IMG/VR virus record: IMGVR_UViG_3300017766_004476
Span: 12,413 to 76,412 of that record
From: a virus
Lineage: Duplodnaviria; Heunggongvirae; Uroviricota; Caudoviricetes
Strand: one strand, 5' to 3'
Length of the DNA: 64,000 nt
The notes beneath the pieces are model-generated. The model ran no database searches. It saw nothing but the letters and a program-made list of their open reading frames with translations, and was not told the DNA's origin. The position numbers and the translations under genes were made by a program. Every line of letters begins with the position of its first letter. Position 1 is the first letter of the stretch. This document shows, one piece after another, positions 5,627 to 63,300 of the stretch.

Positions 5627-5715
5627 GAGGAAACCTATTTAGCTTTGGTTCTAAATAGGTTTTATTTTAAAATGATAGTTTGATATACGAATGATTAAAA
5701 TCGATTTAGATCAAA

Positions 5716-5985
5716 TTATTGGTCTGGTGCAGTCTCGTACATCTTAGCGAACTTAGCAAGAATTGAAACGATATGAGCATCAGGTTCAGTTCCTCCAGAC
5801 GGGTCATTCTCTTGAACTAATTCAATCAAATAATCAATGTCGCCTTTTGTAAGCGGTACTGGTTCTGCAGAATCGATTAGATCTGCTTGCTGTTCGTCAT
5901 TAGAAGGTACATTGCCTATTGATGGGCGCTGACCTTTAAGGACTTCGTCGTATGCTTCAGAAAGCAATTCCATGTGGTGTTTCAT
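5716..5985 (-). CDS. small protein, MKHHMELLSEAY leader family
   Basis: Internal-Met start. Its first 17 aa and 45 nt are identical to the next paralog. Confidence 0.5.
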   Translation of the reverse strand: MKHHMELLSEAYDEVLKGQRPSIGNVPSNDEQQADLIDSAEPVPLTKGDIDYLIELVQENDPSGGTEPDAHIVSILAKFAKMYETAPDQ

Positions 5986-5993
5986 AACATTAT

Positions 5994-6401
5994 TTAATAT
6001 TTCAATGGTGCTGAAACGACTTGTCCGTCTGGATACACAACGTCTACGTTTAATTGACCTGAATCTGCCATTTCTTGAAAATTTGGAATATTGCTCCAAG
6101 ACCATGGATCGGAACCGATTTCCTCTTCAACCACTCGTTGACGATCTCGTTTATTAGATATTGAATGTACAATCCGACTAAAGTTTGTAATCACATCACC
6201 AATAGCACCTCCAGAGTCGTACTCTTCAGGGCGTTCCGGGTCTGATTGCCGGGTATACATATGAACAATAATTTCTTCGATAGTTACAGATATAGGATTT
6301 TCTGGATTGTTATTTTGAGGATCTGGAACATTAGACATTGAAGGTCTATTTTTAAGAACCTCGTCGTATGCTTCAGAAAGCAATTCCATGTGGTGTTTCA
6401 T
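5994..6401 (-). CDS. small protein, MKHHMELLSEAY leader family
   Basis: Tandem paralog of 5716..5985. Confidence 0.55.
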   Translation of the reverse strand: MKHHMELLSEAYDEVLKNRPSMSNVPDPQNNNPENPISVTIEEIIVHMYTRQSDPERPEEYDSGGAIGDVITNFSRIVHSISNKRDRQRVVEEEIGSDPWSWSNIPNFQEMADSGQLNVDVVYPDGQVVSAPLKY

Positions 6402-6497
6402 AATATTATTTATACTAAAGAGGACGCACTCTACCTTTTGTTCTAAACGTATTTGATTGAAAGAATATACTCTGATAGTGTTTGTTAAAGAACTTAT

Positions 6498-7160
6498 TTA
6501 GATCTTATTCTCTTCAAAGGGCTTCGGAGCCGTATTTAAAGGTGTCCAGTAGTGAGTAACCCAATCTTTACTTTTGAGTAGTTTAATAAGCTTTGCCAAG
6601 AGAGGTACTGCTTCTTTAAACTGAAATCTTCCAATATGAATAGCAACATCTCTCCCCAGCTTCTGAACTTCAGTAACTGGTTGAAGCTTTTCATATGCTT
6701 GAGAATAGCGCTCACCTGCTTCTCTGACCTCTTTCCACCACTGTTCTAAAGAACCTTTATAACCGTATTCTCGGACATGATAGTTGTAGTTACTCTCAAT
6801 CTGCTGTTTAACATCCTCATCAATAGGCATCCATCCTTTACGAGGAGCAAGAGACTGATAGATTTTCTCTGCCTTTTCTAATGTGGCCCTGCGCCCATAA
6901 TGATATCCGCCACCTCCGAAATCGTGCTTTGAATCACTATAGGAACTGCGATGAATCAAATCACCACCATGTTCAAGCCAATAAAGCCATGAACCCGTCC
7001 CATGAGTAACATTAGGATTAAGGCGTTCGTTGAACATCCCCTCTGGTCCTTCCCACCGTTGCTGGTTATGAACTTTAGCAAATGCTTCTATCATCTCAGG
7101 AGTTCTATAAGGATGATCTGAACCATATACTTCATTAAAGTATTGTTTAAATTTTTCCAT
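6498..7160 (-). CDS. hypothetical protein with CTS-like leader (MEKFKQYFNEVY)
   Basis: Shared leader motif, 220 aa. Confidence 0.55.
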   Translation of the reverse strand: MEKFKQYFNEVYGSDHPYRTPEMIEAFAKVHNQQRWEGPEGMFNERLNPNVTHGTGSWLYWLEHGGDLIHRSSYSDSKHDFGGGGYHYGRRATLEKAEKIYQSLAPRKGWMPIDEDVKQQIESNYNYHVREYGYKGSLEQWWKEVREAGERYSQAYEKLQPVTEVQKLGRDVAIHIGRFQFKEAVPLLAKLIKLLKSKDWVTHYWTPLNTAPKPFEENKI

Positions 7161-7163
7161 ATA

Positions 7164-7697
7164 TTAATATCTTATATCAGGGTTTGAAGGATTAAAAGAA
7201 CCTTTATTGCCAGTTGCTGATTTAATTTGGCTCGGATCAAATACTACAAACTCTCTATCTGCACTCGGGGTATCAGAAAAACCAATTATTCCATCATACC
7301 CCATCTTCTCCCATTTCTTTATGAGTTGTGGGAGATTGTCATGATACTGAAGATAAGAAGACTTACCTTCAGGAAGTAAGTCTTGAGGTACTGGATTAGT
7401 TATTCTAAGGTAAGCAGGAATAACTCGTGCAGATACGAGCTCTTTTCTATTTACGAAAGCGGCATATTCATGAGAGTTTTGGGCAATAGTACTAGCATAC
7501 TCCGGTTCATCAGTAAAATAACTCGGATAATCTTTAAGGAATTTATCTTCAAAGCTTACCATTGCTCGACCATGATAAACTCTCAACGGTCTACCCTCAC
7601 TATCAACTACTTTAGATCCTGCAAACCATTTTTGAAACTCAGGAGTAAGTACTTGATTACGATTCTCAGCTAAAAAATATGTCTTAAAGTCGATCAT
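7164..7697 (-). CDS. CTS-like-leader protein, paralog pair A (YHGR motif; conserved C-terminal tail)
   Basis: MIDFKTYFLAEN leader, then KVVDSEGRPLRVYHGR. The C-terminus IKSATGNKGSFNPSNPDIRY is shared with 7701..8237. Confidence 0.6.
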   Translation of the reverse strand: MIDFKTYFLAENRNQVLTPEFQKWFAGSKVVDSEGRPLRVYHGRAMVSFEDKFLKDYPSYFTDEPEYASTIAQNSHEYAAFVNRKELVSARVIPAYLRITNPVPQDLLPEGKSSYLQYHDNLPQLIKKWEKMGYDGIIGFSDTPSADREFVVFDPSQIKSATGNKGSFNPSNPDIRY

Positions 7698-7700
7698 AGG

Positions 7701-8237
7701 TTAATGTCTGATGTCAGGGTTAGAAGGATTGAAGGAACCTTTGTTACCGGTTGCAGATTTGATCTGCTCTGGATAAAACGGAACATATGAATCACCTTTT
7801 CCTTCAACTTTATTAGAGTAAACCAAACCATCATACCCCTCTCGTTTAGCTCTCTGGATTATATATGCCCACATAGGGCCTAGTGTATCATCTTCAACTC
7901 GTTTAGGGTTTTTAATTGATAAATAGACAGGCACTATATTAGGCGCTTTACCTTTCATATTTTGAGTCATCCATTCATAATCTTCTGGAGATATAGTCCA
8001 ACCTCTTAAAATTTTATTAGCTTGTTCTGAAGAGCCAAAATGGCCTAATGCTCCACCTCCACCCATAAGCGTAGCTTCCTGATCTTTAAAAGTATTAAAA
8101 TCGTCAACTCGTCCATGATAAACAACTAAAGGATTACCTTGAGAATCAACCACCTTTGATCCCTTAAACCACTCTTTAAAGGCTGGTGATTCAGTCACTT
8201 TATAGTTCTCTGTAAAGTATTCCTTAAAGGTGTGCAT
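7701..8237 (-). CDS. CTS-like-leader protein, paralog pair B
   Basis: MHTFKEYFTENY leader, then KVVDSQGNPLVVYHGR and the same C-terminal tail. Confidence 0.6.
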   Translation of the reverse strand: MHTFKEYFTENYKVTESPAFKEWFKGSKVVDSQGNPLVVYHGRVDDFNTFKDQEATLMGGGGALGHFGSSEQANKILRGWTISPEDYEWMTQNMKGKAPNIVPVYLSIKNPKRVEDDTLGPMWAYIIQRAKREGYDGLVYSNKVEGKGDSYVPFYPEQIKSATGNKGSFNPSNPDIRH

Positions 8238-8557
8238 TAGTTTGAAAAGAGAGCAACGTTCTGACCATCTTGAGATACCCCAATAGCCATTCCGTTCTGA
8301 GCATTTGCATCTTGATCGAAATAGGAAAGACGTACTAAGTAGAAGAAATCTTCAGGAGTACTCTTCTTCCAATCAGAACCATAACCGTGCTCTTTAGAGA
8401 TACTAATAAGACGTGCAGTATCCTTTATGTTCTGAACATATGATTCATCTCCGAGTTGAGGGGCAACCTTTAAGAGGATGTTTTCGAGCTTTAAGAAGTC
8501 CGGAGTTGCATTCATCTCTTCATATGCTTCTGCAAGTAATTCTAAATGATGTTTCAT
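8237..8557 (-). CDS. small protein, MKHHLELLAEAY leader family
   Basis: Shares the leader family. Confidence 0.5.
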   Translation of the reverse strand: MKHHLELLAEAYEEMNATPDFLKLENILLKVAPQLGDESYVQNIKDTARLISISKEHGYGSDWKKSTPEDFFYLVRLSYFDQDANAQNGMAIGVSQDGQNVALFSN

Positions 8558-9688: not shown

Positions 9689-9921
9689 AAAAATTTCCGA
9701 GAACCGAGAACTTAAAAAGAATTTGGAAAAAAATTGGCATGGGGTCCGGATCGGAGTGCAAGCTTTTTCTATATCTAATAAATTTTCGTACTTAAGGCTT
9801 GCATTTCGCGGTGTGCTCCGATCCCCTCTCCACCTTTCGAGATGGCTGAGGCTCTCGAGAGCACACCGCTCTTAATTGTTCTAGTATCATTAAAGCTTGC
9901 CAGTTTGTTTAGATCAATGCT

Positions 9922-10230: not shown

Positions 10231-10626
10231 TTACTTTACTTCAACAGCCTCAACGAGCGGACCGTTCTGGTTGCCCACGCACCACATAATCCAAGCCCCA
10301 GCAATGGTGCGTGCGCGGAGCTCCCAACCGTTCGACATCGCAGCCAAGTAGCCGCAAATCCAATCTGGACGGAACGACTGGCGGATGCTCTCAGGCGTCA
10401 AGCCATATTCGTATGCAGAGAGCTCGATGCGCTCCAATCCGAACTCGTTGAAGTGATACGATGCCTCGCCTGCATAGATGTGTACATCGTTTCGCTTATC
10501 AATCTCGATGGTCACATCGCCGGGTGCCTCGATGACTTGCTTCATCGTTGCGCGACGCTCTGCGCAGGCTTCAGCAGTTAGCGCTTCAGGGTTGGTGATG
10601 GTCGTGAGCTTGAATTTATATTTCAT
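10231..10626 (-). CDS. island gene 7, hypothetical (131 aa)
   Basis: GC-rich ORF. The -10 CATACT lies 6 nt before the ATG, predicting a leaderless mRNA. Confidence 0.55.
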   Translation of the reverse strand: MKYKFKLTTITNPEALTAEACAERRATMKQVIEAPGDVTIEIDKRNDVHIYAGEASYHFNEFGLERIELSAYEYGLTPESIRQSFRPDWICGYLAAMSNGWELRARTIAGAWIMWCVGNQNGPLVEAVEVK

Positions 10627-10632
10627 AGATGC

Positions 10633-10661
10633 AGTATGGCTCTTTTTCGGAGGGAGTGCAA
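10633..10661 (-). promoter_or_regulatory. island promoter TTGCAC-N17-CATACT
   Basis: Exact hexamers and spacing. Confidence 0.5.
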
Positions 10662-10910
10662 CTACTTTGTGGGGCGCGGCAGGCTCGGAGGAATCGTCAG
10701 GAGGCTCCGACTCGTGATGTTCATGATGCCCACCACCGGCACCTGCTCTACCAAATTGGGAATGATTGCTTGCACTCCGCAGATGAAATGGAACTCAGCA
10801 TCGCGGCCTGCCTTGCCCTTCGGCCACCCCTTCTTGTCGAGGAGCTGGAGCTCGGTGAGGTGCTTAAGGAGCATTGCGTGTAGTTCGTCGAATGTGATGT
10901 TCTTTATCAT
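10662..10910 (-). CDS. island gene 6, hypothetical (82 aa)
   Basis: Same architecture. Promoter at 10917-10945. Confidence 0.5.
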   Translation of the reverse strand: MIKNITFDELHAMLLKHLTELQLLDKKGWPKGKAGRDAEFHFICGVQAIIPNLVEQVPVVGIMNITSRSLLTIPPSLPRPTK

Positions 10911-10916
10911 GTCAAT

Positions 10917-10945
10917 AGTATGGTTGATTTCTCGTTCTAGTGCAA
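10917..10945 (-). promoter_or_regulatory. island promoter TTGCAC-N17-CATACT
   Basis: Exact hexamers, 6 nt to the ATG. Confidence 0.5.
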
Positions 10946-11158
10946 CTACTCATTCCGAAATCGTGCCACAATGTTGTCCAAGTCAACACCCCGCATCACG
11001 TCCAATCCGCAATGGGTGCTCGGATGCAAGCGCTTATTGTCCAATGCGCACACATCCTTCATCCGCTGGTGCAGCTCCGGCTTGAGCACTTTGGCCCAGC
11101 TTGCGATGTGCTCTTCTTGGATTTTGATTCCTTCCGCAACTGTGAACTTAATTTTCAT
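10946..11158 (-). CDS. island gene 5, hypothetical (70 aa)
   Basis: Same architecture. Promoter at 11165-11193. Confidence 0.5.
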   Translation of the reverse strand: MKIKFTVAEGIKIQEEHIASWAKVLKPELHQRMKDVCALDNKRLHPSTHCGLDVMRGVDLDNIVARFRNE

Positions 11159-11164
11159 ACAGTC

Positions 11165-11193
11165 AGTATGGCTCTAAATTTGTTTCTGTGCAA
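11165..11193 (-). promoter_or_regulatory. island promoter TTGCAC-N17-CATACT
   Basis: Exact hexamers, 6 nt to the ATG. Confidence 0.5.
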
Positions 11194-11312
11194 CTACTTT
11201 TCCGAATTCTTTTCAGCGCCTACGCTCGAGAGAATGCACTCCCTCGCACACCGCAATAGCCCTAAGCGCTGAAAGGAACTCGGAGGGGCTGCCTCCGAGT
11301 AGTGTAAAGGCT

Positions 11313-11591
11313 TTAGGCCGCAGAGGCAACAGCTTTCTTCCGCACGGCGCGCTTCTTCGGAGCCGGAGCCTCGGGCTCAACCGCTTTGGGAGCCGGAGCC
11401 GCCACGAGCTTCGCCTGCTTGGGCTCGCGCTTGGCCCGCTCGTTGAGCCAGCGGAACGTGGGGGTGTGCAGAACGGCCGGATAGGTTCCGTTGCTCTGCG
11501 CCTGAGCGATGAGCTGGTTGACCGCATCGGTCGCGCTGAGCTCTTTGCGCTTGACGCGCTCCTTGTAGCTGTGATGCATTGTTGTCTTCAT
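11313..11591 (-). CDS. island gene 4: small basic protein with Ala/Pro/Lys-rich histone-H1-like tail (AAPAPKAVEPEAPAPKKRAVRKKAVASAA)
   Basis: Start at MKTTMHH. Promoter at 11635-11663 (TTGCAC-N17-TAATAT), 44-nt leader. Confidence 0.5.
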   Translation of the reverse strand: MKTTMHHSYKERVKRKELSATDAVNQLIAQAQSNGTYPAVLHTPTFRWLNERAKREPKQAKLVAAPAPKAVEPEAPAPKKRAVRKKAVASAA

Positions 11592-11634
11592 ATGTTTTTG
11601 TTTCCGACAGTAATCGTTATTGATTACAAAAAAG

Positions 11635-11663
11635 ATATTAGCTGTTTCCCGTGGGCAGTGCAA
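11635..11663 (-). promoter_or_regulatory. island promoter TTGCAC-N17-TAATAT
   Basis: Exact spacing. Confidence 0.45.
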
Positions 11664-11669
11664 CTCTTT

Positions 11670-11960
11670 TTAGAGTTTAATTACAACTACTTCCGCAATA
11701 TAGTGCTTGCCCGTCCCGTGCTGTTTGCCGAATATAGAGAACACCCAGCCGGAGATCTCGTCGTTCATATCCCGCATCCAGGAAACTTCTTCCGCCTGGA
11801 GCTGCTCGTCGTCGGGCAATGCATCGACGTACGCATTGATTGCAGCCATCTCGTGCGAGGGCTCGGGCCTCCGGTCCACCGCATCGTAGTGCTGGCCCCG
11901 GAGGCTGGGCGTATCGAAGTAGTTCTTAATCGTTATCCGGACCGCATATTTCATTTTCAT
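11670..11960 (-). CDS. island gene 3, hypothetical (~96 aa)
   Basis: Start placed at the second ATG so the -10 (CACACT, 11967-11972) lies 6 nt upstream, as in its siblings. Confidence 0.5.
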   Translation of the reverse strand: MKMKYAVRITIKNYFDTPSLRGQHYDAVDRRPEPSHEMAAINAYVDALPDDEQLQAEEVSWMRDMNDEISGWVFSIFGKQHGTGKHYIAEVVVIKL

Positions 11961-11966
11961 ACTCAT

Positions 11967-11995
11967 AGTGTGGCTCCGTTTCTAGTTCTGTGCAA
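11967..11995 (-). promoter_or_regulatory. island promoter TTGCAC-N17-CACACT
   Basis: Exact spacing. Confidence 0.45.
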
Positions 11996-11998
11996 CTA

Positions 11999-12370
11999 TT
12001 AATTGTAGAAATGTTTCCGAATTACAGAGTTGCCTTCGATGGTGAGAACGACTTCAATACAGCACTCGCTGTCTTCCGAATTCTGATACATGACCCAGCA
12101 GCCCGGAGTGTGCCACCCGCTGACCGTATTCTTATCCTTATCGCGCCAGAACACCACCCCCGACAGCTCTCCTTGTGGAATGTCGAGCTTTTCCGCCACC
12201 TCGATACACAAGTTGCCGATATCAGCTTCCATCCCCATCCCATCCTTGCCGAATCCGATAGGCTGAGCATAGACGGGACCACGGCCCAGCCATTGGCTGA
12301 AGCACATCCACAATTTGCTATCGTCGATGTAGTCAATCATCTTCCGGTCAATTGTCGTATCATTTATCAT
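11999..12370 (-). CDS. island gene 2, hypothetical (~123 aa)
   Basis: The -10 CATACT (12377-12382) sits inside the longest ORF, so the start is moved to the Met 6 nt downstream (MINDTT…). Confidence 0.5.
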   Translation of the reverse strand: MINDTTIDRKMIDYIDDSKLWMCFSQWLGRGPVYAQPIGFGKDGMGMEADIGNLCIEVAEKLDIPQGELSGVVFWRDKDKNTVSGWHTPGCWVMYQNSEDSECCIEVVLTIEGNSVIRKHFYN

Positions 12371-12376
12371 ACCCAG

Positions 12377-12405
12377 AGTATGGCTCATCCGCAGGAGCAG
12401 TGCAA
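12377..12405 (-). promoter_or_regulatory. island promoter TTGCAC-N17-CATACT
   Basis: Exact spacing. Confidence 0.5.
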
Positions 12406-12447
12406 CAATTTTCTAAAATATATTTCACGGCCCACCCGAATTTTTGC

Positions 12448-13708: not shown

Positions 13709-13785
13709 TTCAGGGAACGCGCTCTGCAGAGAAATCAGATTTACTTGAATGATTTTTGATTTCTCTGCAGAGCGCGTTCCCTGAA
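13709..13785. repeat. 29-bp perfect inverted repeat (arms 13709-13737 and 13757-13785) with a 19-nt loop
   Basis: TTCAGGGAACGCGCTCTGCAGAGAAATCA / TGATTTCTCTGCAGAGCGCGTTCCCTGAA, exact reverse complements. Confidence 0.9.
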
Positions 13786-14283
13786 AGAACACAGCGCGCC
13801 CGAATAAAAGCTTGATTATCCCTATAATGCGAGAACACTGTGCACTTTAATGATTCTCTGAGGCCTTTGTTCTAAGTCGTAAAGGTATGAATCACTGTGT
13901 TTGTATATGAAATGAAACAAACCTATTTAGAACAAAAGCTACATAGGGATCCGCAGGGGTTAAAAGATATGTCTGACTCGGTAGATATGTAATGAAGAGG
14001 AAGCGCTGAGGAGAGCCTGGCGGGGCAGAGAGTTCTGATACGTGTGTACGCGGTTCTGATAACGTGACGCGGGTATCAGATTGAGACGGGGCTAATAGAT
14101 AGGCCCCGCGAGGTTCTGAATATGAGGGTTCTTTAAACTATCTGAAGGATTACGGATTATAAGAGAGCTACCGGACCGAATAATGCGGATCGGTAGAGGC
14201 TTATAGGGCTCGGAAGGAGTCCGGAATATCTAGAGTTGAGAAAGTTGGAAAAAAATTATCCGGATCCGGGTACCTTTATACGC

Positions 14284-14359
14284 GACCAATTTTCCACTCT
14301 CTTCAGATCACCAATTCTCTTGAGTATTCTCATCCACTCTCTTCAGATCACCAATTCTC
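14284..14359. repeat. 27-bp direct repeat x2 (CCACTCTCTTCAGATCACCAATTCTCT)
   Basis: Two copies separated by ~22 nt, just outside the island's right boundary. Confidence 0.8.
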
Positions 14360-14391
14360 TCAAGCAGTCTCTGCCTCCTTATTTCTCTCCA

Positions 14392-14435
14392 TAAAAAATC
14401 CCATTACTAGATCTATCTCAATTTCTAGTAATGGG
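14392..14435 (-). terminator. rho-independent terminator downstream of 14456..14767
   Basis: CCCATTACTAGA…TCTAGTAATGGG hairpin followed by TTTTTT on the minus strand. Confidence 0.6.
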
Positions 14436-14455
14436 AAGAGTAAAAGACTCGATCT

Positions 14456-14767
14456 TTATTCTATATACTTCCAGAGTATATCGTAAATACGTCTCAGGTC
14501 CTTCTTAACCTCATTAGTTATCACTCCGTTCTCGTCAGGGTACTTCTTGTTTATGTGTTCTATTCCTATTAAGCATTCATGAGCCATCATACTGAAGTTC
14601 ATCCGTGCTTCATCCTTTCTTTGCTCTTCAGGAGTCATCTCAGGATGTACCGGCTTAGGTACTAGTGTTGCCTGATCTTTCATCTCTTTAGGGAAGATGT
14701 CGGGAGGAGTAGGAGAGGTTATCTGATCGTATGCCTCTGCCAAGAGTTGGGTGTCTTTATTCTTCAT
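14456..14767 (-). CDS. small protein, MKNKDTQLLAEAY leader family
   Basis: Leader family member. Its 5' ~40 nt repeats in the next two loci. Confidence 0.5.
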   Translation of the reverse strand: MKNKDTQLLAEAYDQITSPTPPDIFPKEMKDQATLVPKPVHPEMTPEEQRKDEARMNFSMMAHECLIGIEHINKKYPDENGVITNEVKKDLRRIYDILWKYIE

Positions 14768-15006
14768 GGTCGTTCATCTCCATCTACCCGGAGAAGGGTT
14801 AACAGCTTATGTGCTAAGTCCGCCTCTTCAGGAGTGAGACCTTCTTTCACATCTTTAACATATGACAGCTCCCCCATAAGGCTGTCAATTAACATATGTG
14901 ACTCTTCTTTGGGGTTTAATTTTATGAGAGTTGCTTTGGGGCCTTTAGGCTTATTAACTTTACCTTCATATGCCTCTGCCAAGAGTTGGGTGTCTTTATT
15001 CTTCAT
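14764..15006 (-). CDS. small protein, MKNKDTQLLAEAY leader family
   Basis: Tandem paralog. Confidence 0.5.
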   Translation of the reverse strand: MKNKDTQLLAEAYEGKVNKPKGPKATLIKLNPKEESHMLIDSLMGELSYVKDVKEGLTPEEADLAHKLLTLLRVDGDERP

Positions 15007-15015
15007 TATCTTTAT

Positions 15016-15321
15016 TTAGAGATATTTCCAAATATTCTTTTTACCTAAAGGTATAATCTCAATGCCATCACGGCACAGGAGCAGATAGTTTTCATCACCC
15101 TCTCCGGACCCTTCTAAGAACATCGGAAGTGCTACCTCGATCGGTACCGTACCATCTTCCTTACACTCTTCAATTGCATCTTCAACGCTTCCGAAGACCT
15201 GCGTTAGAATCAGTTCTTTTAACGAAGAGAAGCGGGTACGAATTTTCGGTTGATTGTCCCCGAAATAGTCATCCATTCCAATGAGAATGAATTCGCGATC
15301 TGTTGTCTTATTCTCTTTCAT
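15016..15321 (-). CDS. hypothetical protein (101 aa)
   Basis: ORF. An in-frame stop immediately upstream prevents fusion with the leader remnant. Confidence 0.45.
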   Translation of the reverse strand: MKENKTTDREFILIGMDDYFGDNQPKIRTRFSSLKELILTQVFGSVEDAIEECKEDGTVPIEVALPMFLEGSGEGDENYLLLCRDGIEIIPLGKKNIWKYL

Positions 15322-15409
15322 ACTTTATTTGTTGAGGGAGAAGAAATTGAGGACCTTTAACCTTTTGTTCATATGCCTCTGCCAACAATTGAGCGTCTTT
15401 CTTATTCAT
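15308..15409 (-). pseudogene. 33-codon remnant of the LLAEAY leader family (MNKKDAQLLAEAYEQKVKGP…*)
   Basis: Retains the conserved leader and 5' DNA repeat but stops after 33 codons and overlaps the next gene. Confidence 0.3.
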
Positions 15410-15413
15410 ATTT

Positions 15414-15713
15414 TTATTTAGTGCGGTACACTGTGATAATAGTCTTCTCTTCCTTGCCATCATCTCCATCAACCCACATTTCAAGAGATGTATCATCATC
15501 TACTCCCTCGGTGGGAATACCCAGAAGCCATGATATTAGAGTAACTGTGCGTGAGTTGTTAAGAAGGACAGTTAAACCGAAATCATCATTTGCTTCAAAA
15601 ACCCGTCCTGGGATTTCTACTCCATTATCATACCGCAGGGTTACAAAGTCTCCCTTTGCTAAGCTATTCACTTCTGTTATCTTTATGAGCTTAACTTTCT
15701 TATTCATACACAC
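15414..15713 (-). CDS. hypothetical protein (99 aa)
   Basis: ORF. Confidence 0.45.
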   Translation of the reverse strand: MCMNKKVKLIKITEVNSLAKGDFVTLRYDNGVEIPGRVFEANDDFGLTVLLNNSRTVTLISWLLGIPTEGVDDDTSLEMWVDGDDGKEEKTIITVYRTK

Positions 15714-21746: not shown

Positions 21747-21913
21747 AATATTATTACACCTTATAGGTATAATCATTTAGAACCTATGAGGCCTTTGTTC
21801 TAAATGAGTTTTATTTCATTCATGATGTGTGATAGTGTTTTTAAATTGTGCTACTTAGATCAAATTCTCTATTTTTCACTATTAGACGTGTAGAGTGTAC
21901 CTAAAAAAGAAAG

Positions 21914-22027
21914 TGCCGGTGGAGGGATTCGAACTTAGCTTGTACTTCGCTACCGCTGCTCGTGCACGAGCCAGCGCCTCTCTACCTAGTTTATCAAACT
22001 AGCGCTCTGCCATTAAGCTACACCGGA
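21914..22027 (-). tRNA. tRNA-Ile(GAU)-like gene interrupted by a ~42-nt palindromic insertion inside the T-stem
   Basis: Acceptor, D-arm (GCTT/AATGGCA/GAGC), anticodon arm (CTAGT-TTGATAA-ACTAG) and T-loop TTCGAAT are canonical. An extra 21935-21976 segment (contains GCTCGTGCACGAGC) separates the T-stem 5' half from the loop. Confidence 0.5.
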
Positions 22028-26029: not shown

Positions 26030-26031
26030 CT

Positions 26032-26121
26032 TGGTACCACAGACTGGACTTGAACCAGCACACTGGGTTAAACCAGCTAGGGATTTTAAATCCCTTGCGT
26101 CTGCCATTTCGCCACTGTGGC
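26032..26121 (-). tRNA. tRNA-Leu(UAA), type II with long variable arm, CCA encoded
   Basis: Acceptor GCCACAG/CTGTGGT, anticodon loop TTTAAAA, variable hairpin CTGG…CCAG, T-arm GCTGG-TTCAAGT-CCAGT, 3' ACCA. Confidence 0.75.
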
Positions 26122-30578: not shown

Positions 30579-30871
30579 AAATTAATAGGTGTTACTAGGC
30601 GCCCAACCCAAGATGCTTATGGCTTGCCTTTCGGGAATCTACTCAGCAATGCATCTAAAAACTTTCGGGAATCTACTCGTTGAACCTAATCATTATTTCA
30701 TAGCTGATTATCGCTAACGAATTAAAATATAAGATGTCTGTGAAAATATTAAAGCTTTTATTTAGAACATTTATCTCTGGCTTTTGTTCTAAGTGGTTCA
30801 TTTTATCAAATACATCTTTGTATATAAATTATAAACAAATTGATTAGAACAAAAGCTCTAATGAGCAAACA

Positions 30872-30929: not shown

Positions 30930-31226
30930 TTACTTCTGCTTACCGTTCAACTTGAGAGAACGTTCAGCCCGCTCTGCAAAGTCATCAGGAATAGGGCCCT
31001 TATTAAAGCGCACCCAAACCTCTGAATACGGAGTCTTTGCCTTCCGCGCCTTACGCAATGCTGAGCCTACATTCTTAGCAATGTAGTGTTGTTCGAACTC
31101 CTCAATCGTGACTCCTAAGAGTGCAGCACGAGCGGTGCAGTACTTAAGAGAGGTGAGACGTGTTTGTTGACTTACCCAGCACGTAAGTTTCCATTTCTTT
31201 TCTGCTGTTTGAGTTGTTTCATTCAT
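30930..31226 (-). CDS. hypothetical protein (98 aa)
   Basis: ORF. Confidence 0.45.
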   Translation of the reverse strand: MNETTQTAEKKWKLTCWVSQQTRLTSLKYCTARAALLGVTIEEFEQHYIAKNVGSALRKARKAKTPYSEVWVRFNKGPIPDDFAERAERSLKLNGKQK

Positions 31227-31340
31227 ATATTAGATTAATATCTAAGTTTACAATAATGATTATATATGAACGCGTCACTTATTGCAACATGTTTATTAGA
31301 ACAAAAGCTAAATAATATTTACACACAGGAATAAAGAGAT

Positions 31341-37417: not shown

Positions 37418-37533
37418 AAAGGTTTTTATTATAGTGTTCTAATTGTCGAGCTTTTGTTCTAAGAGAGTTTCTTTTATAATATGAGTAGCGAGTGTGATTG
37501 AAAATTGAACTACTTAGAACAAATGCTATAAGG

Positions 37534-38842: not shown

Positions 38843-39120
38843 ATAGACCTCGACTTTCTTTGATCAACAGGAATTGAGGATGTGTGTTGACCAAAGAGCA
38901 TTTTTTCAAGATGATATTGATCATCAGCATGAGGCTTTACCCCTAAAGAGACTGATTCTCCATAAGGTATTACTCGCTTATCCTCCCAGTCGATTGATAC
39001 AAAGCCCGCACCGATTACCTTTTTACCTCTTACAGTGTGTGCATGCTCTGCATGTTCTGGAAAGATTAACGGTACAGTAAGTCCAAACTCTCCTTCTATT
39101 GTCACATATTTAAGTCTCAT
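38839..39120 (-). CDS. hypothetical protein (93 aa)
   Basis: ORF. Confidence 0.45.
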   Translation of the reverse strand: MRLKYVTIEGEFGLTVPLIFPEHAEHAHTVRGKKVIGAGFVSIDWEDKRVIPYGESVSLGVKPHADDQYHLEKMLFGQHTSSIPVDQRKSRSI

Positions 39121-39673
39121 AAGCGTATAAATTCTTTAGGTAGTCTCCATATTCATTACGGAGCTTGGCACGAATATTACAAAGTCGTACCTTAATGGTA
39201 TTAGGAGTAGTGTTAATTCTCTGTGCAATCTCCTTAATAGGCACCTCATCAATATAAAACCAAGTAAAGATATCTCTATATTGATGCGGAAGAAGGTTGA
39301 TTATTGGTTCAATACCTAATTCTGAAACATATTGATCTTCAGCTATCATTGAAGATATTTCATTACGTGCAGATAATCCGAGCTCATCATCATCGATATA
39401 AACTTTATTTACCTCTCGGTAAGGCATAGGGCAGCGGAAGAGAGTATCAACAATCTTCCGTTTTGCTGCTACGATAAGCCACCGATGAACTGCATCTGAG
39501 TTGTGAGATTTGAGTTTAGTAAAGGAGTTGTAGAGAGAGATAAAGACATCTTGAACAATATCTTCTACATTAATAGTACCTCGCGGGCACTTGGTATAAA
39601 TGTAGTTTCGAATAGTATTTACCTCTTTAAGGTAAACTTGTTCAAACATTTCATTTATTTGTTCTTGATGCAT
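39110..39673 (-). CDS. sigma-70 family (ECF-like) RNA polymerase sigma factor
   Basis: Region-2-like DIVQDVFISLY and region-4 HTH VPIKEIAQRINTTPNTIKVRLCNIRAKLR. Confidence 0.65.
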   Translation of the reverse strand: MHQEQINEMFEQVYLKEVNTIRNYIYTKCPRGTINVEDIVQDVFISLYNSFTKLKSHNSDAVHRWLIVAAKRKIVDTLFRCPMPYREVNKVYIDDDELGLSARNEISSMIAEDQYVSELGIEPIINLLPHQYRDIFTWFYIDEVPIKEIAQRINTTPNTIKVRLCNIRAKLRNEYGDYLKNLYAYET

Positions 39674-48091: not shown

Positions 48092-48095
48092 ATTT

Positions 48096-51791: not shown

Positions 51792-51943
51792 TACGTTGTT
51801 AAATTAATAGTTAGAGAGTGATAAATCAAAGTAATATATAGCTTTTATCATATGTTCTAAATGGGAAGCTTTTGTTCTAAAAGGGGTTGATACAATTTAC
51901 ATATATCAACCCCTGTGAATTTTTAACTCATTTAGATCAAATG

Positions 51944-53365
51944 CTACAATTGTGCATTCTTTCTGACTTCATCGAAGGTAATCGGGTTAACCAATTTACC
52001 ATGATTAAAGACTTCAACCATTACATCAGGTCGCGGATCATCAACCGATACTGTTGCATAGGCGCTTCCATGAGCACCTTCAACCTTAACTAGCTTCAAG
52101 CGACCTGCTTTCGATTTCTTGCTCTGATCGAGAGGAAGCTTCTGAACATCTTCCCAGACTCCATTACGGAGCTGTGCACTGCACTTGAATGCAAACCGCT
52201 GAGTGTCGCGATTTACCTTCTGGAGTAGAGCGCCGCCCTTACCGAAGCATGCAATATTTTCTGTAGCATATCCATTGGCTGCTAGAAGAAAGAGAATTTT
52301 CTGAATTCCCTTATCATCAATACCATCACCCCAAAGTACTCTCACCTTATTGTTGATGACTTTATAGTTTTTACTATTGACATATCCTCCTGGAAGAAGC
52401 TTATAGAGCGTGTCAACAATCCACAGCATCTCTTCTTCTGGGGTCTTATGGGTAGGTGTTACACTGTCAGGACGAATTACAAACAATCCATCACGGTCGA
52501 GGATCTGCTGCTTGAATTGGTCACAGACGTATTTTTCTACGAAGTTGTAGATATTGTAGCTATCTGCAACCACACTTAGAATACCTGTCTTATAAGTATC
52601 AAGCAAGCGCTGGAGAACTTTTGCTTCTCCATTATTACCCTCTGCAGTCATAATGCGGTGCTCAGTTGCAGCAACCGAATATGCCAATGTCTCAAGGTTT
52701 GCATCATAATATGCTTCTGCAAGTTCCATACCTGCAATAGTATCAGTACCTTTGAAGTTAATCAAATGAGCAGCACCACCTAGAGCAGCACTCTCATACG
52801 AACTAACTCCCCGGTAACCAAAGTCATGTAACATGAAATCAAGGAGACCTTTATCGGAAGTCTTTTCAAGATAGACCTTAATCATCTTCTTAACTTCACG
52901 GCTTAGAGTTGCAACCGTACATGGATACCAAACCTGGCTGAGAATGGTTTCAAGATAATTCACCAACCATGCATGCTTCTCATCGGTTGCTTCAACAGTC
53001 ATGAGTACATTATTGACGGGTACTACTGTACCTTCGGGGACCGCCTTAATAATGATAGGCAGCTCACCGTTATGATTCTTGAGGATGTCCATCCAGCCTG
53101 CTTCATTAAAGAACTTCTCATCACCAAAGTGACATTTGACGAGATGCTTTGCTTGTTGAATTTCTTCAAAAGATACCCTGCGCCCACAGAGATGCTCTTC
53201 AAGAATTGCCTGAAGACCAAAGAACACAGTTGTATCCCATTTGGCACCGGGACGACTCTCGAAGTATGCATGAGTGTTGGTAGTTCCCGGAGGAAGCATA
53301 TTCCAATGTCCTCCCACTTTGTAGCTATCACTCTTATAGCAAATATTATTTCCAATTTTTTTCAT
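51944..53365 (-). CDS. nadV: nicotinamide phosphoribosyltransferase family (NAMPT/NadV; alternatively Namat-like)
   Basis: 473 aa. SDSYKV, YFESR and VLWGDGID signatures. Confidence 0.85.
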   Translation of the reverse strand: MKKIGNNICYKSDSYKVGGHWNMLPPGTTNTHAYFESRPGAKWDTTVFFGLQAILEEHLCGRRVSFEEIQQAKHLVKCHFGDEKFFNEAGWMDILKNHNGELPIIIKAVPEGTVVPVNNVLMTVEATDEKHAWLVNYLETILSQVWYPCTVATLSREVKKMIKVYLEKTSDKGLLDFMLHDFGYRGVSSYESAALGGAAHLINFKGTDTIAGMELAEAYYDANLETLAYSVAATEHRIMTAEGNNGEAKVLQRLLDTYKTGILSVVADSYNIYNFVEKYVCDQFKQQILDRDGLFVIRPDSVTPTHKTPEEEMLWIVDTLYKLLPGGYVNSKNYKVINNKVRVLWGDGIDDKGIQKILFLLAANGYATENIACFGKGGALLQKVNRDTQRFAFKCSAQLRNGVWEDVQKLPLDQSKKSKAGRLKLVKVEGAHGSAYATVSVDDPRPDVMVEVFNHGKLVNPITFDEVRKNAQL

Positions 53366-56552: not shown

Positions 56553-57593
56553 TTACTTTAAAACAATCACACGCGAACCAGTAATGAGTTTGCGATTTAC
56601 AGAAGTACTCTGAATGAAGATATCATAATCAGGGTGCGCTTCAGGAGACACCTTAGTCAGTGCAGTCGTATCAAGACCGACGAGCTTACGTGCTTGGGGA
56701 CCGGTGTAGACATTACCTGTCTTCTTTTCATAGATACAAATCTGCTTGTATCCTTGAACCTCTTCACGCTTGGTCAATTGGTAGTAACCCGCGCCGGTGT
56801 TATATGCACCAATCTGACGTTCGATATATTCACGAATCGGTGCATCATACTGAACCTGAAGAATATGATAGTCGGAGTGAGCCAACTTATCGAGACTCGT
56901 CTTCACGGTCTGACTATTGAGGTTGGACAGATCCAACTTGAAGAGACTCTTGGTACCGCGGAATTGACCCGGAGGAGCTGCTTTGCGATATTGCATGAAG
57001 CTCTCGGTTGCCATCTGAATCTTCTTACCCACTTCAGCCATACCCTTTGCAGAGGTATCCCAAACTTGGATATTATCAGCAGGGAATCCAAACTTCTTTG
57101 CTTCATGGACACCTGTTTGATCAGGTACCAATACAGCAACGGTCCAGTTGCTTGGAAGATTACTGATAAGAGCAGGGAAGTTAGACTTATTCTGATAGCT
57201 AGATGCATTTTCACCACCATCAGTGAGGACATACATCAAGAATGCATGGTCTCCGTACATCTGAGGAGTGTGTTCGAGATCCTTAAGTGCCTTAGTTGTT
57301 GCATCAATGAGAGCAGTACCCCCATTAGGCTTATAGAAATCTGCGAGAGAAGGAAGACGCAAAACGTCCTTATCGTAAATGATACAGGAAGTTTGATTAT
57401 CAAAGAGATAAACGGTTACCCGAGTTTCTTGGTTGAGCTCTTGTGAGCGTTGTGCGAGATATTTGATTTGACTATCAAATACTTGAATGGTTTGCTTTTC
57501 GATACCTCCCATTGATCCAGACTCGTCAATTACGAGTACGATGTGGTTGATGAGGCTTTGCTTCATGAGCTCGAGGGCTTGTTTAGTTGGCAT
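56553..57593 (-). CDS. von Willebrand factor A (vWA) domain protein
   Basis: MIDAS motif VIDESGSMGG, plus LTDGGEN. Confidence 0.7.
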   Translation of the reverse strand: MPTKQALELMKQSLINHIVLVIDESGSMGGIEKQTIQVFDSQIKYLAQRSQELNQETRVTVYLFDNQTSCIIYDKDVLRLPSLADFYKPNGGTALIDATTKALKDLEHTPQMYGDHAFLMYVLTDGGENASSYQNKSNFPALISNLPSNWTVAVLVPDQTGVHEAKKFGFPADNIQVWDTSAKGMAEVGKKIQMATESFMQYRKAAPPGQFRGTKSLFKLDLSNLNSQTVKTSLDKLAHSDYHILQVQYDAPIREYIERQIGAYNTGAGYYQLTKREEVQGYKQICIYEKKTGNVYTGPQARKLVGLDTTALTKVSPEAHPDYDIFIQSTSVNRKLITGSRVIVLK

Positions 57594-61854: not shown

Positions 61855-61937
61855 ATTTGATTATTTTTGTATTTGATGGTGTGTAACGGTTTTAAATATT
61901 ACACACACAATGTATATGTTTAATTGTGAGCGTGCAA

Positions 61938-62216
61938 TTACTTTTTCTGACGCACTGATTTCGCGGGGTGAATCCGATTTTCTACTTCACGAGCCACCTC
62001 CATAGTGCTCATTTTGGATTCCCAGGGATACCATTCTGCAGTTTCCGGAGAAGAGTCTCCGGTACTCCAATCCCGGGGATCAGTTCGGGGACGGTACACA
62101 TAGGCACCCTTTGTGGTTTGCTTGACAATTACCCCCTTAGTGAAGAATTTACCTTCACGGTAAATCTTGACATGAGTAAAGGTTTGATTGTGTTCAAATG
62201 ACGTGTTTGCATTCAT
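61938..62216 (-). CDS. hypothetical protein (92 aa)
   Basis: ORF. Confidence 0.45.
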   Translation of the reverse strand: MNANTSFEHNQTFTHVKIYREGKFFTKGVIVKQTTKGAYVYRPRTDPRDWSTGDSSPETAEWYPWESKMSTMEVAREVENRIHPAKSVRQKK

Positions 62217-62289
62217 ATATGTAAAATAAGAAATCTTCTAGAGAACTCAAATATTAATTTGGTCTCTAGAAGATTTGTGAGAAGGTTAA

Positions 62290-62532
62290 TTAGCTTGACA
62301 CTTCTTCAGTTTCGGAATACTTAGAAGCAACCTTGAGCTTCCCACTCCGAACTGCAGTACGGATATCACGAGCGAGGTCACGCTTACGAGCCTTATTGAT
62401 GCTCATTGCATGCTGATTGATATCATTCTGAACTGCAACGCCGTTAATATAGATACTACCAGACTTTGTAAGGGTTAACCGTGCAAAGATGGTCTTTGGG
62501 CGATGATTAGGTGTATTTTTTGATATATTCAT
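62290..62532 (-). CDS. hypothetical protein (80 aa)
   Basis: ORF. CTAAATAAAT 41 nt upstream. Confidence 0.4.
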   Translation of the reverse strand: MNISKNTPNHRPKTIFARLTLTKSGSIYINGVAVQNDINQHAMSINKARKRDLARDIRTAVRSGKLKVASKYSETEEVSS

Positions 62533-62583
62533 AACAATTATTATAATGATATGAATATGTAGAATACAAGATATTTATTTAGC

Positions 62584-62880
62584 TTAACGAACTCCCATAC
62601 TTGAATAGTATGCGGTGCGGTAGTAAATGTTGGTAGTTGCACCAGTAGTATATGCGCTAACTGTAGAAGTATTGGTGATTCCTCTGAAGGTAAATGATTC
62701 ACCAGGTTTAATCACAAATGCATGGGTTGTCTCGCTGTATTCATTATCTATGATATACACATCGTTGACCCCTCTATTGACAATAAGTACTTCGCTGCAT
62801 TCCTGAGAACTAAGCGTTCTCACTGCAGTTGTAACTGAGTGATTGAACGAACGACAAACATTTTGATTTACCCATGCCAT
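62584..62880 (-). CDS. hypothetical protein (98 aa)
   Basis: ORF. Confidence 0.45.
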   Translation of the reverse strand: MAWVNQNVCRSFNHSVTTAVRTLSSQECSEVLIVNRGVNDVYIIDNEYSETTHAFVIKPGESFTFRGITNTSTVSAYTTGATTNIYYRTAYYSSMGVR

Positions 62881-62904
62881 ATTAATTATTTATACTCATA
62901 AAGT

Positions 62905-62930
62905 AAAAAAGCCTACATGTTCGTAGGCTT
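62905..62930 (-). terminator. rho-independent terminator
   Basis: AAGCCTAC…GTAGGCTT hairpin followed by TTTTTT on the minus strand. Confidence 0.55.
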
Positions 62931-62994
62931 TGTTCTAAACAATTTTGATTTGAAATAATAATTACACACTCATTAATTAAACAACCCGTTTAGA

Positions 62995-63300
62995 TCAAGC
63001 GATCCTTCGTTCTAAACGCTGTTTAACCGATATGATGACCTTAGATGGAATGACTTCTCCATCTAAATACTTCTTTAATATTTTCGAGTGAATAGAAGAG
63101 ATTGAATATTCTTGTTTGTAATAAGCGTGCTCTGTACCAATATCAATAATTAGATGTTCTGGATATAAATATACTGCTGCGGCCTTTTCAATCTTAACTA
63201 TATACGACAGCGCATAGTATTTCCGAGCCACTTGAGAAATATTTACATTAAGAGGGATATCTATAGATCTCCAGCTTTTAGTTAGTAACTTCATATTCAA
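62995..63300 (-). CDS. hypothetical protein (101 aa)
   Basis: ORF. Confidence 0.45.
   Translation of the reverse strand: MNMKLLTKSWRSIDIPLNVNISQVARKYYALSYIVKIEKAAAVYLYPEHLIIDIGTEHAYYKQEYSISSIHSKILKKYLDGEVIPSKVIISVKQRLERRIA

Follow-up and report, generated by a model that had tools for sequence, protein, structure and literature searches.

Mycobacteriophage L5 carries asymmetric 13-mer stoperators whose orientation follows the direction of transcription (PMC9283540). These gp71 sites of the Cluster A mycobacteriophages occur in many copies—more than 20 in about 52 kb—in promoters and short intergenic spaces, and are tied to the known repressor of a temperate phage (PMC9283540). In phage P1, 22 dispersed and asymmetric C1 operators with the consensus ATTGCTCTAATAAATTT lie in both orientations; some are inverted, 'bivalent' operators that overlap each other and some overlap promoters (PMC8546580; P1 annotation). 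T4-like phages carry PeSLs, conserved composite intergenic modules that join stem-loops or terminators to promoters: a short stem-loop comes first, then a complete sigma-70 promoter, and last a Shine-Dalgarno sequence with the ATG. They are found in hyperplastic regions of small ORFan genes and have been proposed as recombination joints (PMC2839356, PMC4122927). Among mycobacteriophages, the Cluster K SAS/ESAS elements and the Cluster O 17-bp dyad repeats supply lineage-specific 13-bp asymmetric repeats and imperfect inverted repeats in the non-structural half of the genome, with one arm better kept, a hairpin unsupported and a function unknown (PMC3203893, PMC4351075).

We analysed a 64,000-nucleotide stretch of DNA (hereafter the window) from an uncultured freshwater phage. 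Dispersed through it is a 13-bp asymmetric box with the consensus yTTAGAACAAArGC. The 13-mer TTAGAACAAAAGC has six exact matches, compared with 0.00 in 100 dinucleotide shuffles, and 16 matches when up to two mismatches are allowed, compared with a shuffle mean of 2.56 and maximum of 9. The core GTTCTAA/TTAGAAC occurs 20 times, and 16 of these copies are intergenic (binomial P = 1e-10, with an intergenic share of 14.5% of the window taken from a crude gene map); this 7-mer shows the highest intergenic enrichment of any word in the window, ranking top among 7-mers and 8-mers. Counts so far above those of shuffled sequence confirm, and sharpen, the first-pass annotation of this DNA, which had described a genuine dispersed motif sited in intergenic gaps at ten listed places, all ten of which do contain it.

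The boxes are organised into a 77-nt unit, in which GCTTTTGTTCTAA is followed after exactly 51 nt by TTAGAACAAAAGC, giving two inverted 13-base boxes. Eight units in the window are complete and one is truncated; a lone box and five extra boxes are also present (Table 1). Pairs of the form G[AT]TCTAA...TTAGA[AT]C at a 51-nt gap number eight, compared with about 0.004 expected, an expectation that applies to any single given gap, the value of 51 having been chosen after the data were seen; the only other gaps among the same core pairs, up to 300 nt, are 71 nt (twice) and 222 nt (once). A search with nhmmer finds all eight units. The first-pass annotation had overlooked both the unit whose ends the motif copies form and the partner arms that have degraded to TTAGATC (at 5706, 6498, 21855, 51932 and 62990).

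Table 1. Units, boxes and associated genes in the window; full units are named by their start.
Feature	Position	Strand	Details
Full-unit starts	5642, 6434, 13863, 21791, 30780, 37450, 51868, 62926	+	
Unit 5642	5642..5718	-	nhmmer E = 1e-3; proximal box TTAGAACCAAAGC (5654->5642), also within 11-bp local hairpin; distal box degraded to TAATTTGATCTAA; downstream, TATAAATA 31 nt from box start and ATG at +46
Unit 6434	6434..6510	-	Proximal box TTAGAACAAAAGG; distal box GAATAAGATCTAA, overlapping final codons and stop of gene 6498-7160; downstream, TATAAATA at +32 and ATG at +45
Truncated unit	9871..9920	-	GCATTGATCTAA, 25 nt, TAGAACAATTAAG; weak nhmmer match; inside left part of GC-rich island
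Unit 13863	13863..13939	not assigned	Both arms near-perfect; interior polarity flipped; within GC-rich island, beside about 500 nt without ORF
Unit 21791 and third box	21777..21867	-	Unit 21791-21867; inverted box 21777-21783, 20 bp from proximal box, the two together forming 10-bp hairpin; downstream of tRNA-like gene
Unit 30780 and third box	30762..30856	not assigned	Unit 30780-30856, two perfect arms, interior polarity flipped; inverted third box 30762-30768, 24 bp away; terminator of gene 30930-31226 just upstream, coding strand
98-aa basic ORFan gene	30930..31226	-	Between lone box (promoter) and triple-box unit (after terminator)
Lone box	31296..31308	+	Reads GCTTTTGTTCTAA on coding (minus) strand; ends 8 nt upstream of -35 of strong TTGCAA-17-TATAAT promoter of gene 30930-31226; terminator located upstream
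Unit 37450 and third box	37436..37526	-	Unit 37450-37526; direct box 37436-37442, 20 bp away, adjoining TATAAT without -35; ATG of gene 37127-37417 at +45
ECF-type sigma factor gene	39110..39673	-	187 aa, Pfam
Unit 51868 and third box	51854..51944	-	Unit 51868-51944; direct box 51854-51860, 20 bp away, adjoining TATGAT; interior contains terminator-like hairpin of NAMPT gene; distal box with GATC
Unit 62926 and extra box	62926..63015	-	Unit 62926-63002, nhmmer E = 3e-6; box 63009-63015, 19 bp outside distal arm; 3' half of proximal box is first arm of intrinsic terminator (62931->62908); TATAAATA at +44

There are no indels between the boxes of the eight units, and exactly 64 bp separate the start of the gene-proximal box from that of the inverted box upstream of it. 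The interiors are only about 40–60% alike (about 20–31 of 51 positions matching, with the better orientation taken) and are present in both orientations relative to genes, those of units 13863 and 30780 being flipped with respect to most others; an identical gap around such dissimilar interiors indicates that length is constrained independently of interior sequence. The spacer shows no AA/TT phasing at 10–10.5 bp, which would be a sign of a pre-bent loop. An alignment of six units shows almost no variation in the proximal box (TTAGAACAAA.G), whose GAAC is invariant; the proximal box of unit 5642 differs at one position (TTAGAACCAAAGC). Five units have a distal box degraded to GATCTAA, or beyond that where coding sequence overlaps it, and no compensating change accompanies this. 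The extra boxes lie 19, 20, 20, 20 and 24 bp outside an arm, two of them direct and three inverted. Short hairpins, which the first-pass annotation had described for inverted pairs, are confined to four places (21777/21797, 30762/30786, 5642-5664 and 62990/63009); in the main pairs 51 nt lie between the two boxes.

A unit lies upstream of about eight to ten genes of the accessory region. All eight proximal boxes are co-directional with the downstream gene, and in units with GATC in one arm the box nearer the gene is always the intact one. Eight proximal and three extra boxes follow gene direction, yet seven exact cores—among partner arms, third boxes and the lone box—are inverted. The box lies at least 45 nt from the ATG, and only about half of the units place the next -10 element or ATG at a constant distance from it. 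A sigma-70 promoter scan with a score of at least 8 picked out 21 other genes and none downstream of a unit; four of the genes downstream of units lack a -35 but have a -10 element 28–32 nt beyond the start of the box, and many genes in the window start 6–7 nt past a -10 hexamer.

In scans of the sequence collection, every contig with real units belonged to a single Lake Michigan phage population, and loci around homologues of the neighbouring proteins in other phages lack the unit, which bears out an earlier suggestion of a small, lineage-specific repeated element. One copy (L001) sits in the structural region, the others in the accessory region and a GC-rich island. The pair at 13863-13940 had been placed at the right edge of that island, marking the resumption of native phage sequence. 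It is indeed associated with the island; however, GC-rich DNA extends from about 9750 to roughly 14300, which puts the unit inside it rather than at its edge. The truncated unit is found within the island's other end, and a return to native sequence at the pair is not supported. In the population variants L161 and L124, which are near-clonal, indels do not fall at units.

Tentatively, and at somewhat less than even confidence, we read the boxes as asymmetric DNA sites for a sequence-specific regulator, held in a fixed geometry upstream of genes that have no -35. Among the functional options in the first-pass annotation, binding sites for a regulatory protein fare best: box sequence and spacing are kept and pairing is not, and extra boxes occur some 20 bp away in both orientations, an arrangement that favours a DNA-binding protein, which tolerates both, over an RNA motif, which would not. 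No binding protein was found, however. Across the roughly 83 kb of a larger genome that the search covered, phmmer detected no homologue of P1 C1 in the window or related loci (best E = 0.37), and no helix-turn-helix family other than the sigma factor appeared among the 25 listed of the 36 Pfam families matched by 118 ORFs. A speculative candidate is the 98-aa basic ORFan (30930-31226) beside the densest group of boxes, which has no Pfam match, homologue or fold match and yields a low-confidence model (pLDDT 63). All copies of the unit, moreover, come from one near-clonal population and provide no independent evolutionary test; the inconstant distances to the -10 element or ATG, the unphased spacer and the very stable RNA stems of four units also count against a regulator.

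By analogy, such sites might, with the same reserve, resemble L5 stoperators or P1 C1 operators set in PeSL-like intergenic cassettes. The boxes resemble the stoperators in their 13-nt asymmetric form, their many copies and their placement at promoters and in short gaps between genes; unlike L5 sites, they have an unrelated sequence and are paired at a fixed distance rather than single, about a third being inverted partners, and they belong to a phage that looks lytic and large, with a putative regulator only. With the P1 operators they share asymmetry, dispersal, both orientations and the string TTGnTCTAA, the lone box at 31296 matching 13 of 17 positions by eye, a likeness that may be due to chance; the inverted boxes here are 51 nt apart rather than overlapping. 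The lineage-specific Cluster K and O repeats resemble the unit in their asymmetry, their better-kept arm, their location and the lack of support for a hairpin, but SAS elements take in the ribosome-binding region, only 3–8 bp away from start codons, and ESAS spacers vary from 4 to 13 bp where the spacer here is long and invariant.

It is unlikely, though a reading to be taken seriously, that the unit is instead mainly a PeSL-type promoter/terminator module, its arms forming a long stem-loop in read-through RNA and its promoter lying in the interior or downstream flank; the similarity of copies would then come from shared function and recombination, with units acting as joints for modular gene shuffling and no dedicated binding protein. 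The published concept (PMC2839356, PMC4122927) suits an intergenic element in a hyperplastic accessory region of small ORFan genes, the GC-rich island has a full unit near one end and a truncated one near the other, and a segment replacement in L161 has one breakpoint exactly at an ordinary intergenic promoter-upstream element. Local hairpins or terminators occur at units 5642, 21791, 30780, 51868 and 62926, at the lone box 31296 and at the L001 copy, and are absent from units 6434, 13863 and 37450; the earlier remark that copies sit next to terminators is right in part, applying to 30780, 31296, 51868 and 62926 in the window and to L001. A -10-like hexamer clusters at interior columns 28–38 in seven of nine units, as it does in 78 of 2,000 shuffles (P about 0.04). 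The interiors have no -35, however, the genes behind units are missing from the 21 best promoters, and no Shine-Dalgarno sequence was seen by inspection, whereas real PeSLs end in one and have no fixed-length loop like the 51-nt spacer between these 13-bp arms. Stems are lost in three of the eight units, the variants' indels fall elsewhere, and only eight of about 110 gene junctions carry a unit; the common junction of the window (CTAAATAAAC, TTGAnn, 17 nt, TATATT, ATG) is a better analogue.

Pairing at the RNA level, with the arms forming a 13-bp processing or stabilising stem in read-through or unit-initiated transcripts, comparable to the RNase III sites of the T7 early region, seems improbable. 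Folding does reveal very stable arm-arm stems on the coding strand of units 13863, 30780, 37450 and 51868 (z -4.0 to -6.4) and a weaker fold in unit 62926 (z = -2.5), and a U-G wobble in unit 13863 preserves pairing on the coding strand only. Yet three of the eight units have no stable fold (z of 0.13 at 21791, 0.14 at 6434 and -0.20 at 5642), five have a mid-stem A-A mismatch, and differences between arms are never compensated, quite apart from the fact that a stem needs no exact loop length and that third boxes occur in both orientations. An Rfam search gave no match. Since boxes and spacing are kept while distal boxes degrade without compensation and three units do not fold, what is conserved is sequence and spacing, not pairing: the stem in all copies with compensatory changes that marks a T7-type RNase III hairpin is not seen, and the RNA processing sites once proposed for this motif find little in their favour.

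ECF sigma factors typically recognise -35 elements containing AAC. The window encodes a 187-aa sigma factor (39110-39673) with regions 2 and 4 (Pfam Sigma70_r2 1.3e-6, r4_2 2.7e-11) behind an early-type promoter, and the box could be an extended -35 (GAAC) for this ECF-type protein of the phage's own, defining a middle or late gene class, which we think a poor prospect. Proximal boxes are directed at downstream genes, and post hoc inspection finds TC 15–16 nt after GAAC in five of about 12 boxes; nevertheless, GAAC is not followed at any fixed distance, such as a 16–18 nt spacer, by a conserved -10, and the sole enriched dyad upstream of genes is of the sigma-70 type (TTGA-17/18-TATA). Inverted partner boxes would give antisense transcription, and neither 13-bp conservation nor a fixed 51-nt partner spacing is a promoter trait. 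Only with GAAC as a -35 is this sigma factor a candidate trans-acting factor.

Very unlikely, in our view, is the spread through intergenic DNA of a MITE-like element whose ends are 13-bp terminal inverted repeats. Such an origin would fit the uniform 77-nt length, the inverted arms, the two orientations of the interior relative to genes and the presence of copies in the accessory region, GC-rich island and structural region (L001), but no target-site duplications or flanking direct repeats were found and no transposase is associated with the units. Conserved ends around dissimilar interiors are the reverse of recent spread, intact boxes point consistently toward the downstream gene, and the population variants showed no presence/absence polymorphism, none of them lacking a unit.

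Integron attC sites end in 5' RYYYAAC ... GTTRRRY 3', forming an imperfect palindrome. Compared by eye, the unit has the reversed order (GTTCTAA ... TTAGAAC) and unlike cores, and was rejected as an attC site; no integrase is among the Pfam families listed for the window's ORFs.

If the boxes are regulator sites, one sequence-specific DNA-binding protein would occupy each asymmetric box, as in L5 or P1; it would most likely be encoded by the phage, outside the window or unrecognised within it. The bound proteins, we infer, would span the fixed spacer from one box to another. A full module would comprise a box oriented with transcription and placed shortly before a gene, an inverted box 64 bp upstream and often a third box outside. 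Regulation might run in either direction: bound protein could block initiation and read-through in the manner of a stoperator, or could act as an activator that substitutes for the missing -35. Hairpins, terminators and possibly homologous-recombination joints like those of the T4-like PeSL cassettes would be side effects of the units. Since the module stands before about eight to ten genes that have only a -10, its occupancy would switch this gene set as a group.

The 13-mer TTAGAACAAAAGC occurs in six exact copies in the window against none expected, and in 16 copies when up to two mismatches are allowed (shuffle mean 2.56, maximum 9); no word of the window is more enriched in intergenic DNA than its core, GTTCTAA/TTAGAAC, which has 16 of 20 copies in the 14.5% that is non-coding (P = 1e-10, on a crude gene map). 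A copy is present at every position where the first-pass annotation had reported a dispersed palindromic motif. The copies are not single scattered sites: on the + strand they are laid out as GCTTTTGTTCTAA, 51 nt and TTAGAACAAAAGC, forming eight full units that were delimited by alignment and nhmmer and are named here by their + strand starts (u5642 and so on). This anatomy and its statistics are direct observations. Pairs of the relaxed core G[AT]TCTAA...TTAGA[AT]C with a gap of exactly 51 nt number eight; for any single specified gap the expectation is about 0.004 pairs, and 51 nt was not chosen beforehand. Up to 300 nt, the remaining pairs have gaps of 71 nt (twice, from extra boxes) and 222 nt (once). 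There are no indels in the eight units or in a further copy on an 84-kb viral contig (L001), and the interiors agree at only about 20–31 of 51 positions in the better orientation.

Read along the coding (minus) strand, the order is upstream stop codon—often inside or directly ahead of the distal arm—then distal arm, (TAG)AGCaTTTG(T/A)TCTAA(a/g)TAG; a 51-nt AT-rich spacer; the proximal arm, yTTAGAACAAA(a/g)GC; and the next ATG, 32–200 nt further on. The proximal arm is almost invariant in a six-unit alignment (columns T95–A104 and G106) and differs at one position in u5642 (TTAGAACCAAAGC). The distal arm has GATC in place of GTTC in five units and is decayed further in u6434, where it overlaps coding sequence. 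Extra boxes lie 19–24 bp outside one arm, three of them at exactly 20. Judged by their interiors, u13863 and u30780 run the other way round from the remaining units, an inversion of the kind that recombination between perfect inverted arms would produce.

Coordinates of the units, boxes, selected genes and other local features of the window
Feature	Position	Strand	Details
Full unit	5642		-10 element after proximal box: TATAAATA
Full unit	6434		-10 element after proximal box: TATAAATA
Full unit	13863
Full unit	21791
Full unit	30780
Full unit	37450		-10 element after proximal box: TATAAT
Full unit	51868		-10 element after proximal box: TATGAT
Full unit	62926
Direct extra boxes	37436, 51854
Inverted extra boxes	21777, 30762, 63009; 6351 in L001
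Lone box	31296		Upstream of a strong TTGCAA-17-TATAAT promoter, its end 8 nt from the -35
Truncated unit	9871–9920		Arms 25 nt apart
NAMPT	51944–53365
PRPP synthetase	47117–48166
NMNAT-Nudix fusion
RNA ligases			Two encoded
ART-PolyVal, NADAR and GmrSD_N domains
ECF-type sigma factor	39110–39673	minus	187 aa; Pfam Sigma70_r2 + r4_2
tRNA-like Rfam match	21914–22027		114 nt, directly upstream of u21791; possible intron or long insert
ORF-poor region	24706–27589		About 3 kb; tRNA-Leu at 26032–26121
21-nt repeat	26096, 26742, 27002		First two exact, third 86% identical
12-nt tandem repeats	33059–33230		Two ATGACTAACTGC-like blocks in a 336-nt non-coding gap; strong terminator 33044->33015 adjoins
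Perfect 29-bp inverted repeat	13709–13785		19-nt loop, 77 nt in total
16-nt exact repeat	13501, 13799		CCCGAATAAAAGCTTG; flanks the perfect inverted repeat
39-nt tandem duplication	14293–14371

The window covers the accessory, early-type part of the genome of a large, uncultured, myovirus-like phage (about 39% GC), with nearly all genes on the minus strand and, beyond the genes tabulated, mostly small ORFans. Megablast against 50,697 GenBank phage records found no close relative, and protein matches among GenBank phages reach at most 59% identity, to assorted jumbo phages. Metagenome fragments of this phage were L124, L161, L181, L202/L204, L228 and L229 from Lake Michigan viromes (Ga0181352/Ga0181343), and L201 and L227 from one Logan run; L227–L229 were found through exact protein matches. 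Where compared (L124, L161, L181, L201 and L202), identity to the window is 93.6–100%, which places it within that freshwater phage population. Divergence in L181 (93.6% identical) is a mosaic, so that an identical intergenic region there is uninformative on selection. Small tandem paralogous genes form two families (5716–5985, 5994–6401 and 8237–8557; 14456–15416), with N-termini MKHH.ELL.EAY... and MKNKDTQLLAEAY..., the first pair of paralogues lying between u6434 and u5642. The protein encoded at 56553–57593 has its best matches in Mycobacterium and Streptomyces phages; together with leaderless genes, this hints at a freshwater actinobacterial host.

The unit family seems confined to this population, in keeping with an earlier suggestion of a lineage-specific repeated element: outside the window, the scans yielded real units only in contigs of the same phage population. 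Exact-pattern scans of IMG/VR returned them in L001, L002 and L204 only, L003 and the other 23 loci of the second viral-contig scan being chance pattern matches; in L001 a single unit stands between the tail-sheath terminator and the following gene. One metagenome scan gave just four useful matches (L104, L124, L161 and L181), fragments of the same phage, and was dominated by one unrelated bacterial locus of the human gut, repeated across more than 100 samples (L084–L199). That locus fits the 13-51-13 pattern on both strands (TTTGTTCTAA, 51 nt, TTAGAACAAA), and we regard it as one chance match that repeated sampling has multiplied. No further units were found in the 9 kb past either window end (L201, L202), nor in other phages around homologues of the neighbouring RNA ligase (80 loci) or of the PHROG-1843 protein (4 loci).

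The standard gene junction in this phage consists of CTAAATAAAC, two nt, TTGAnn, 16–17 nt and TAT(A/T)AT. In 11 of the 21 best-scoring sigma-70-like promoters (TTGAnn, 16–17 nt, TATwAT) the -10 hexamer ends 6–7 nt ahead of the ATG, with no Shine-Dalgarno sequence seen by inspection, and to judge by sequence these genes look leaderless; starts at 39673, 35285, 19856, 44388, 40990 and 46378 are examples. None of the 21 promoters serves a gene downstream of a unit. Four such genes lack anything like a -35 and have a good -10 element 28–32 nt past the start of the proximal box; a second direct box adjoins that -10 element in u37450 and u51868. Within the spacers, a -10-like hexamer falls in columns 28–38 in seven of nine units, an only mildly significant result (78/2000 shuffles), and there is no -35 element. 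The first-pass observation that copies sometimes lie next to terminators holds in part: counting terminator-like hairpins, there is one inside u51868, one overlapping the proximal box of u62926, and one preceding each of u30780, the lone box and the L001 unit.

We tentatively favour, at somewhat short of even confidence, a regulatory reading: each box would be an asymmetric site recognised by a sequence-specific DNA-binding protein, which would control the -35-less promoters as a class. One protein molecule would occupy each asymmetric box; bound molecules would bridge the 64-bp box pair, plus the third box about two helical turns off; and occupancy would govern about ten -35-less promoters together. 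We infer protein binding and bridging, and equally any choice between repression and activation. No binding protein was identified. A tempting guess is the basic 98-aa ORFan at 30930–31226, with four boxes on its flanks; it has no Pfam match even at E = 10, no homologue among 5.8 billion proteins and, in a model of pLDDT 63, no fold match. The spacer shows no A-tract phasing at 10–10.5 bp, box-to--10 distance is variable in half of the units, and all copies come from one lineage, with no independent lineage for comparison.

Among the alternatives, an unlikely one is that the units are promoter/terminator cassettes doubling as recombination joints, like the promoter-early stem-loop (PeSL) cassettes of T4-like phages; this reading and that of regulator-binding sites are compatible and can both hold. 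The cassette reading is in line with the genomic setting, with the terminators, with copies lying close to either end of a GC-rich island, and with a replacement breakpoint placed exactly at an ordinary promoter-upstream element. In the population variant concerned (L161, 99.5% identical elsewhere), 25164–26766 (1.6 kb) is exchanged for an unrelated 748 nt, and the left breakpoint, a PeSL-like joint, comes directly after CTAAATAAAC. However, with no -35 element and no Shine-Dalgarno sequence the units fall outside the PeSL definition (PMC4122927), and they are found at only 8 of about 110 gene junctions. Separately, L124 lacks 14768–14965 through recombination between paralogous genes.

The island runs from about 9750 to about 14300 at 50–65% GC, against 39% elsewhere. 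The pair at 13863 had been taken to mark the return to native phage sequence; u13863 instead lies inside the island, GC-rich DNA continuing to about 14300, and the truncated unit lies inside the opposite end. AT-rich units with the standard consensus, embedded in foreign-looking DNA, suggest either that the donor had the same boxes or that the units mark recombination joints. Long + strand ORFs in the island are probably spurious. A minus-strand repeat (TTGCAC, 17 nt, CATACT) occurs in six copies at 10616–12410, with an ATG 6 nt beyond it at the one copy inspected (10582–10635), suggesting that small leaderless genes of foreign origin follow one another on the minus strand. Next to u13863, the stretch 13940–14455, about 500 nt with no convincing ORF, holds three copies of GTTCTGA, which differs from the box core by one base, together with the 39-nt duplication, ends at the terminator of gene 14456–14767, and could be a non-coding RNA or origin-like region.

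A bolder proposal, and something of a long shot, is that the 13-51-13 unit is a new fixed-length nucleoprotein platform, on which a protein of the phage, or two proteins together, would gauge a distance of exactly 64 bp from one asymmetric box to its inverted partner. It might act as a switch for temporal transcription control of a leaderless, -35-less regulon or, alternatively, as a site for site-specific cassette exchange, with conserved ends, free centre and constrained length in functional analogy to integron attC. The exchange version would account for copies at the two extremities of the island.

That the units act as RNA processing or stability hairpins is improbable. Folding gave an arm–arm stem in four units (z from -4.0 to -6.4) and a weak one in u62926 (z = -2.5), but the pairing is not conserved: u21791, u6434 and u5642 are no better than shuffles (z = 0.13, 0.14 and -0.20), arm differences never show compensating changes, and an A-A mismatch is predicted mid-stem in five units. 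Rfam gave no match for the units, its only matches being tRNAs and spurious microRNA precursors on the perfect inverted repeat, and third boxes occur in both orientations at roughly equal distance. A stem does not require a fixed loop length. Together, these findings speak for recognition of the boxes as double-stranded DNA and for the importance of their spacing.

We are just as doubtful that the box is the -35 for a phage ECF sigma factor. The invariant GAAC makes the idea tempting, but there is no -10 element at a fixed distance and no enriched GAAC-containing dyad upstream of genes. The phage's own ECF-type sigma factor gene, preceded by an early-type leaderless promoter, has no close homologue in GenBank phages. 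A MITE is scarcely credible, since target duplications and empty sites are absent and the ends are conserved whereas the interiors have diverged. By eye, target-site duplications and stops in all three frames gave no fit, nor did the IHF consensus, MotA box, FNR/DeoR boxes or attC cores.

For boxes acting as regulator-binding sites, the closest working analogues would be the operators and stoperators of mycobacteriophage L5—asymmetric 13-mers whose orientation follows transcription (PMC9283540)—and the C1 operators of P1, which are likewise asymmetric and number 22 at dispersed sites (PMC8546580). The box shares TTGnTCTAA with the P1 C1 consensus ATTGCTCTAATAAATTT; a search for a C1 homologue in the sequence examined was negative, so this is resemblance rather than membership. 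The unit family is real, highly non-random and lineage-specific, and its kind is known in outline from dispersed asymmetric regulatory repeats and composite intergenic phage cassettes. We know of no earlier description of a strictly fixed 13-51-13 geometry with a free interior.

Gene regulation in large environmental phages is, to our knowledge, almost unexplored. The 13-bp box and its strict 64-bp geometry offer a testable handle, usable as bait for the regulator, and the module would group about ten genes into one regulon, in a phage with its own ECF sigma factor and many seemingly leaderless genes. If the spacing reflects protein bridging, the units would be a compact natural case of distance-measuring regulation; if they are recombination joints, they would be relevant to the transfer of accessory gene modules from one phage to another.
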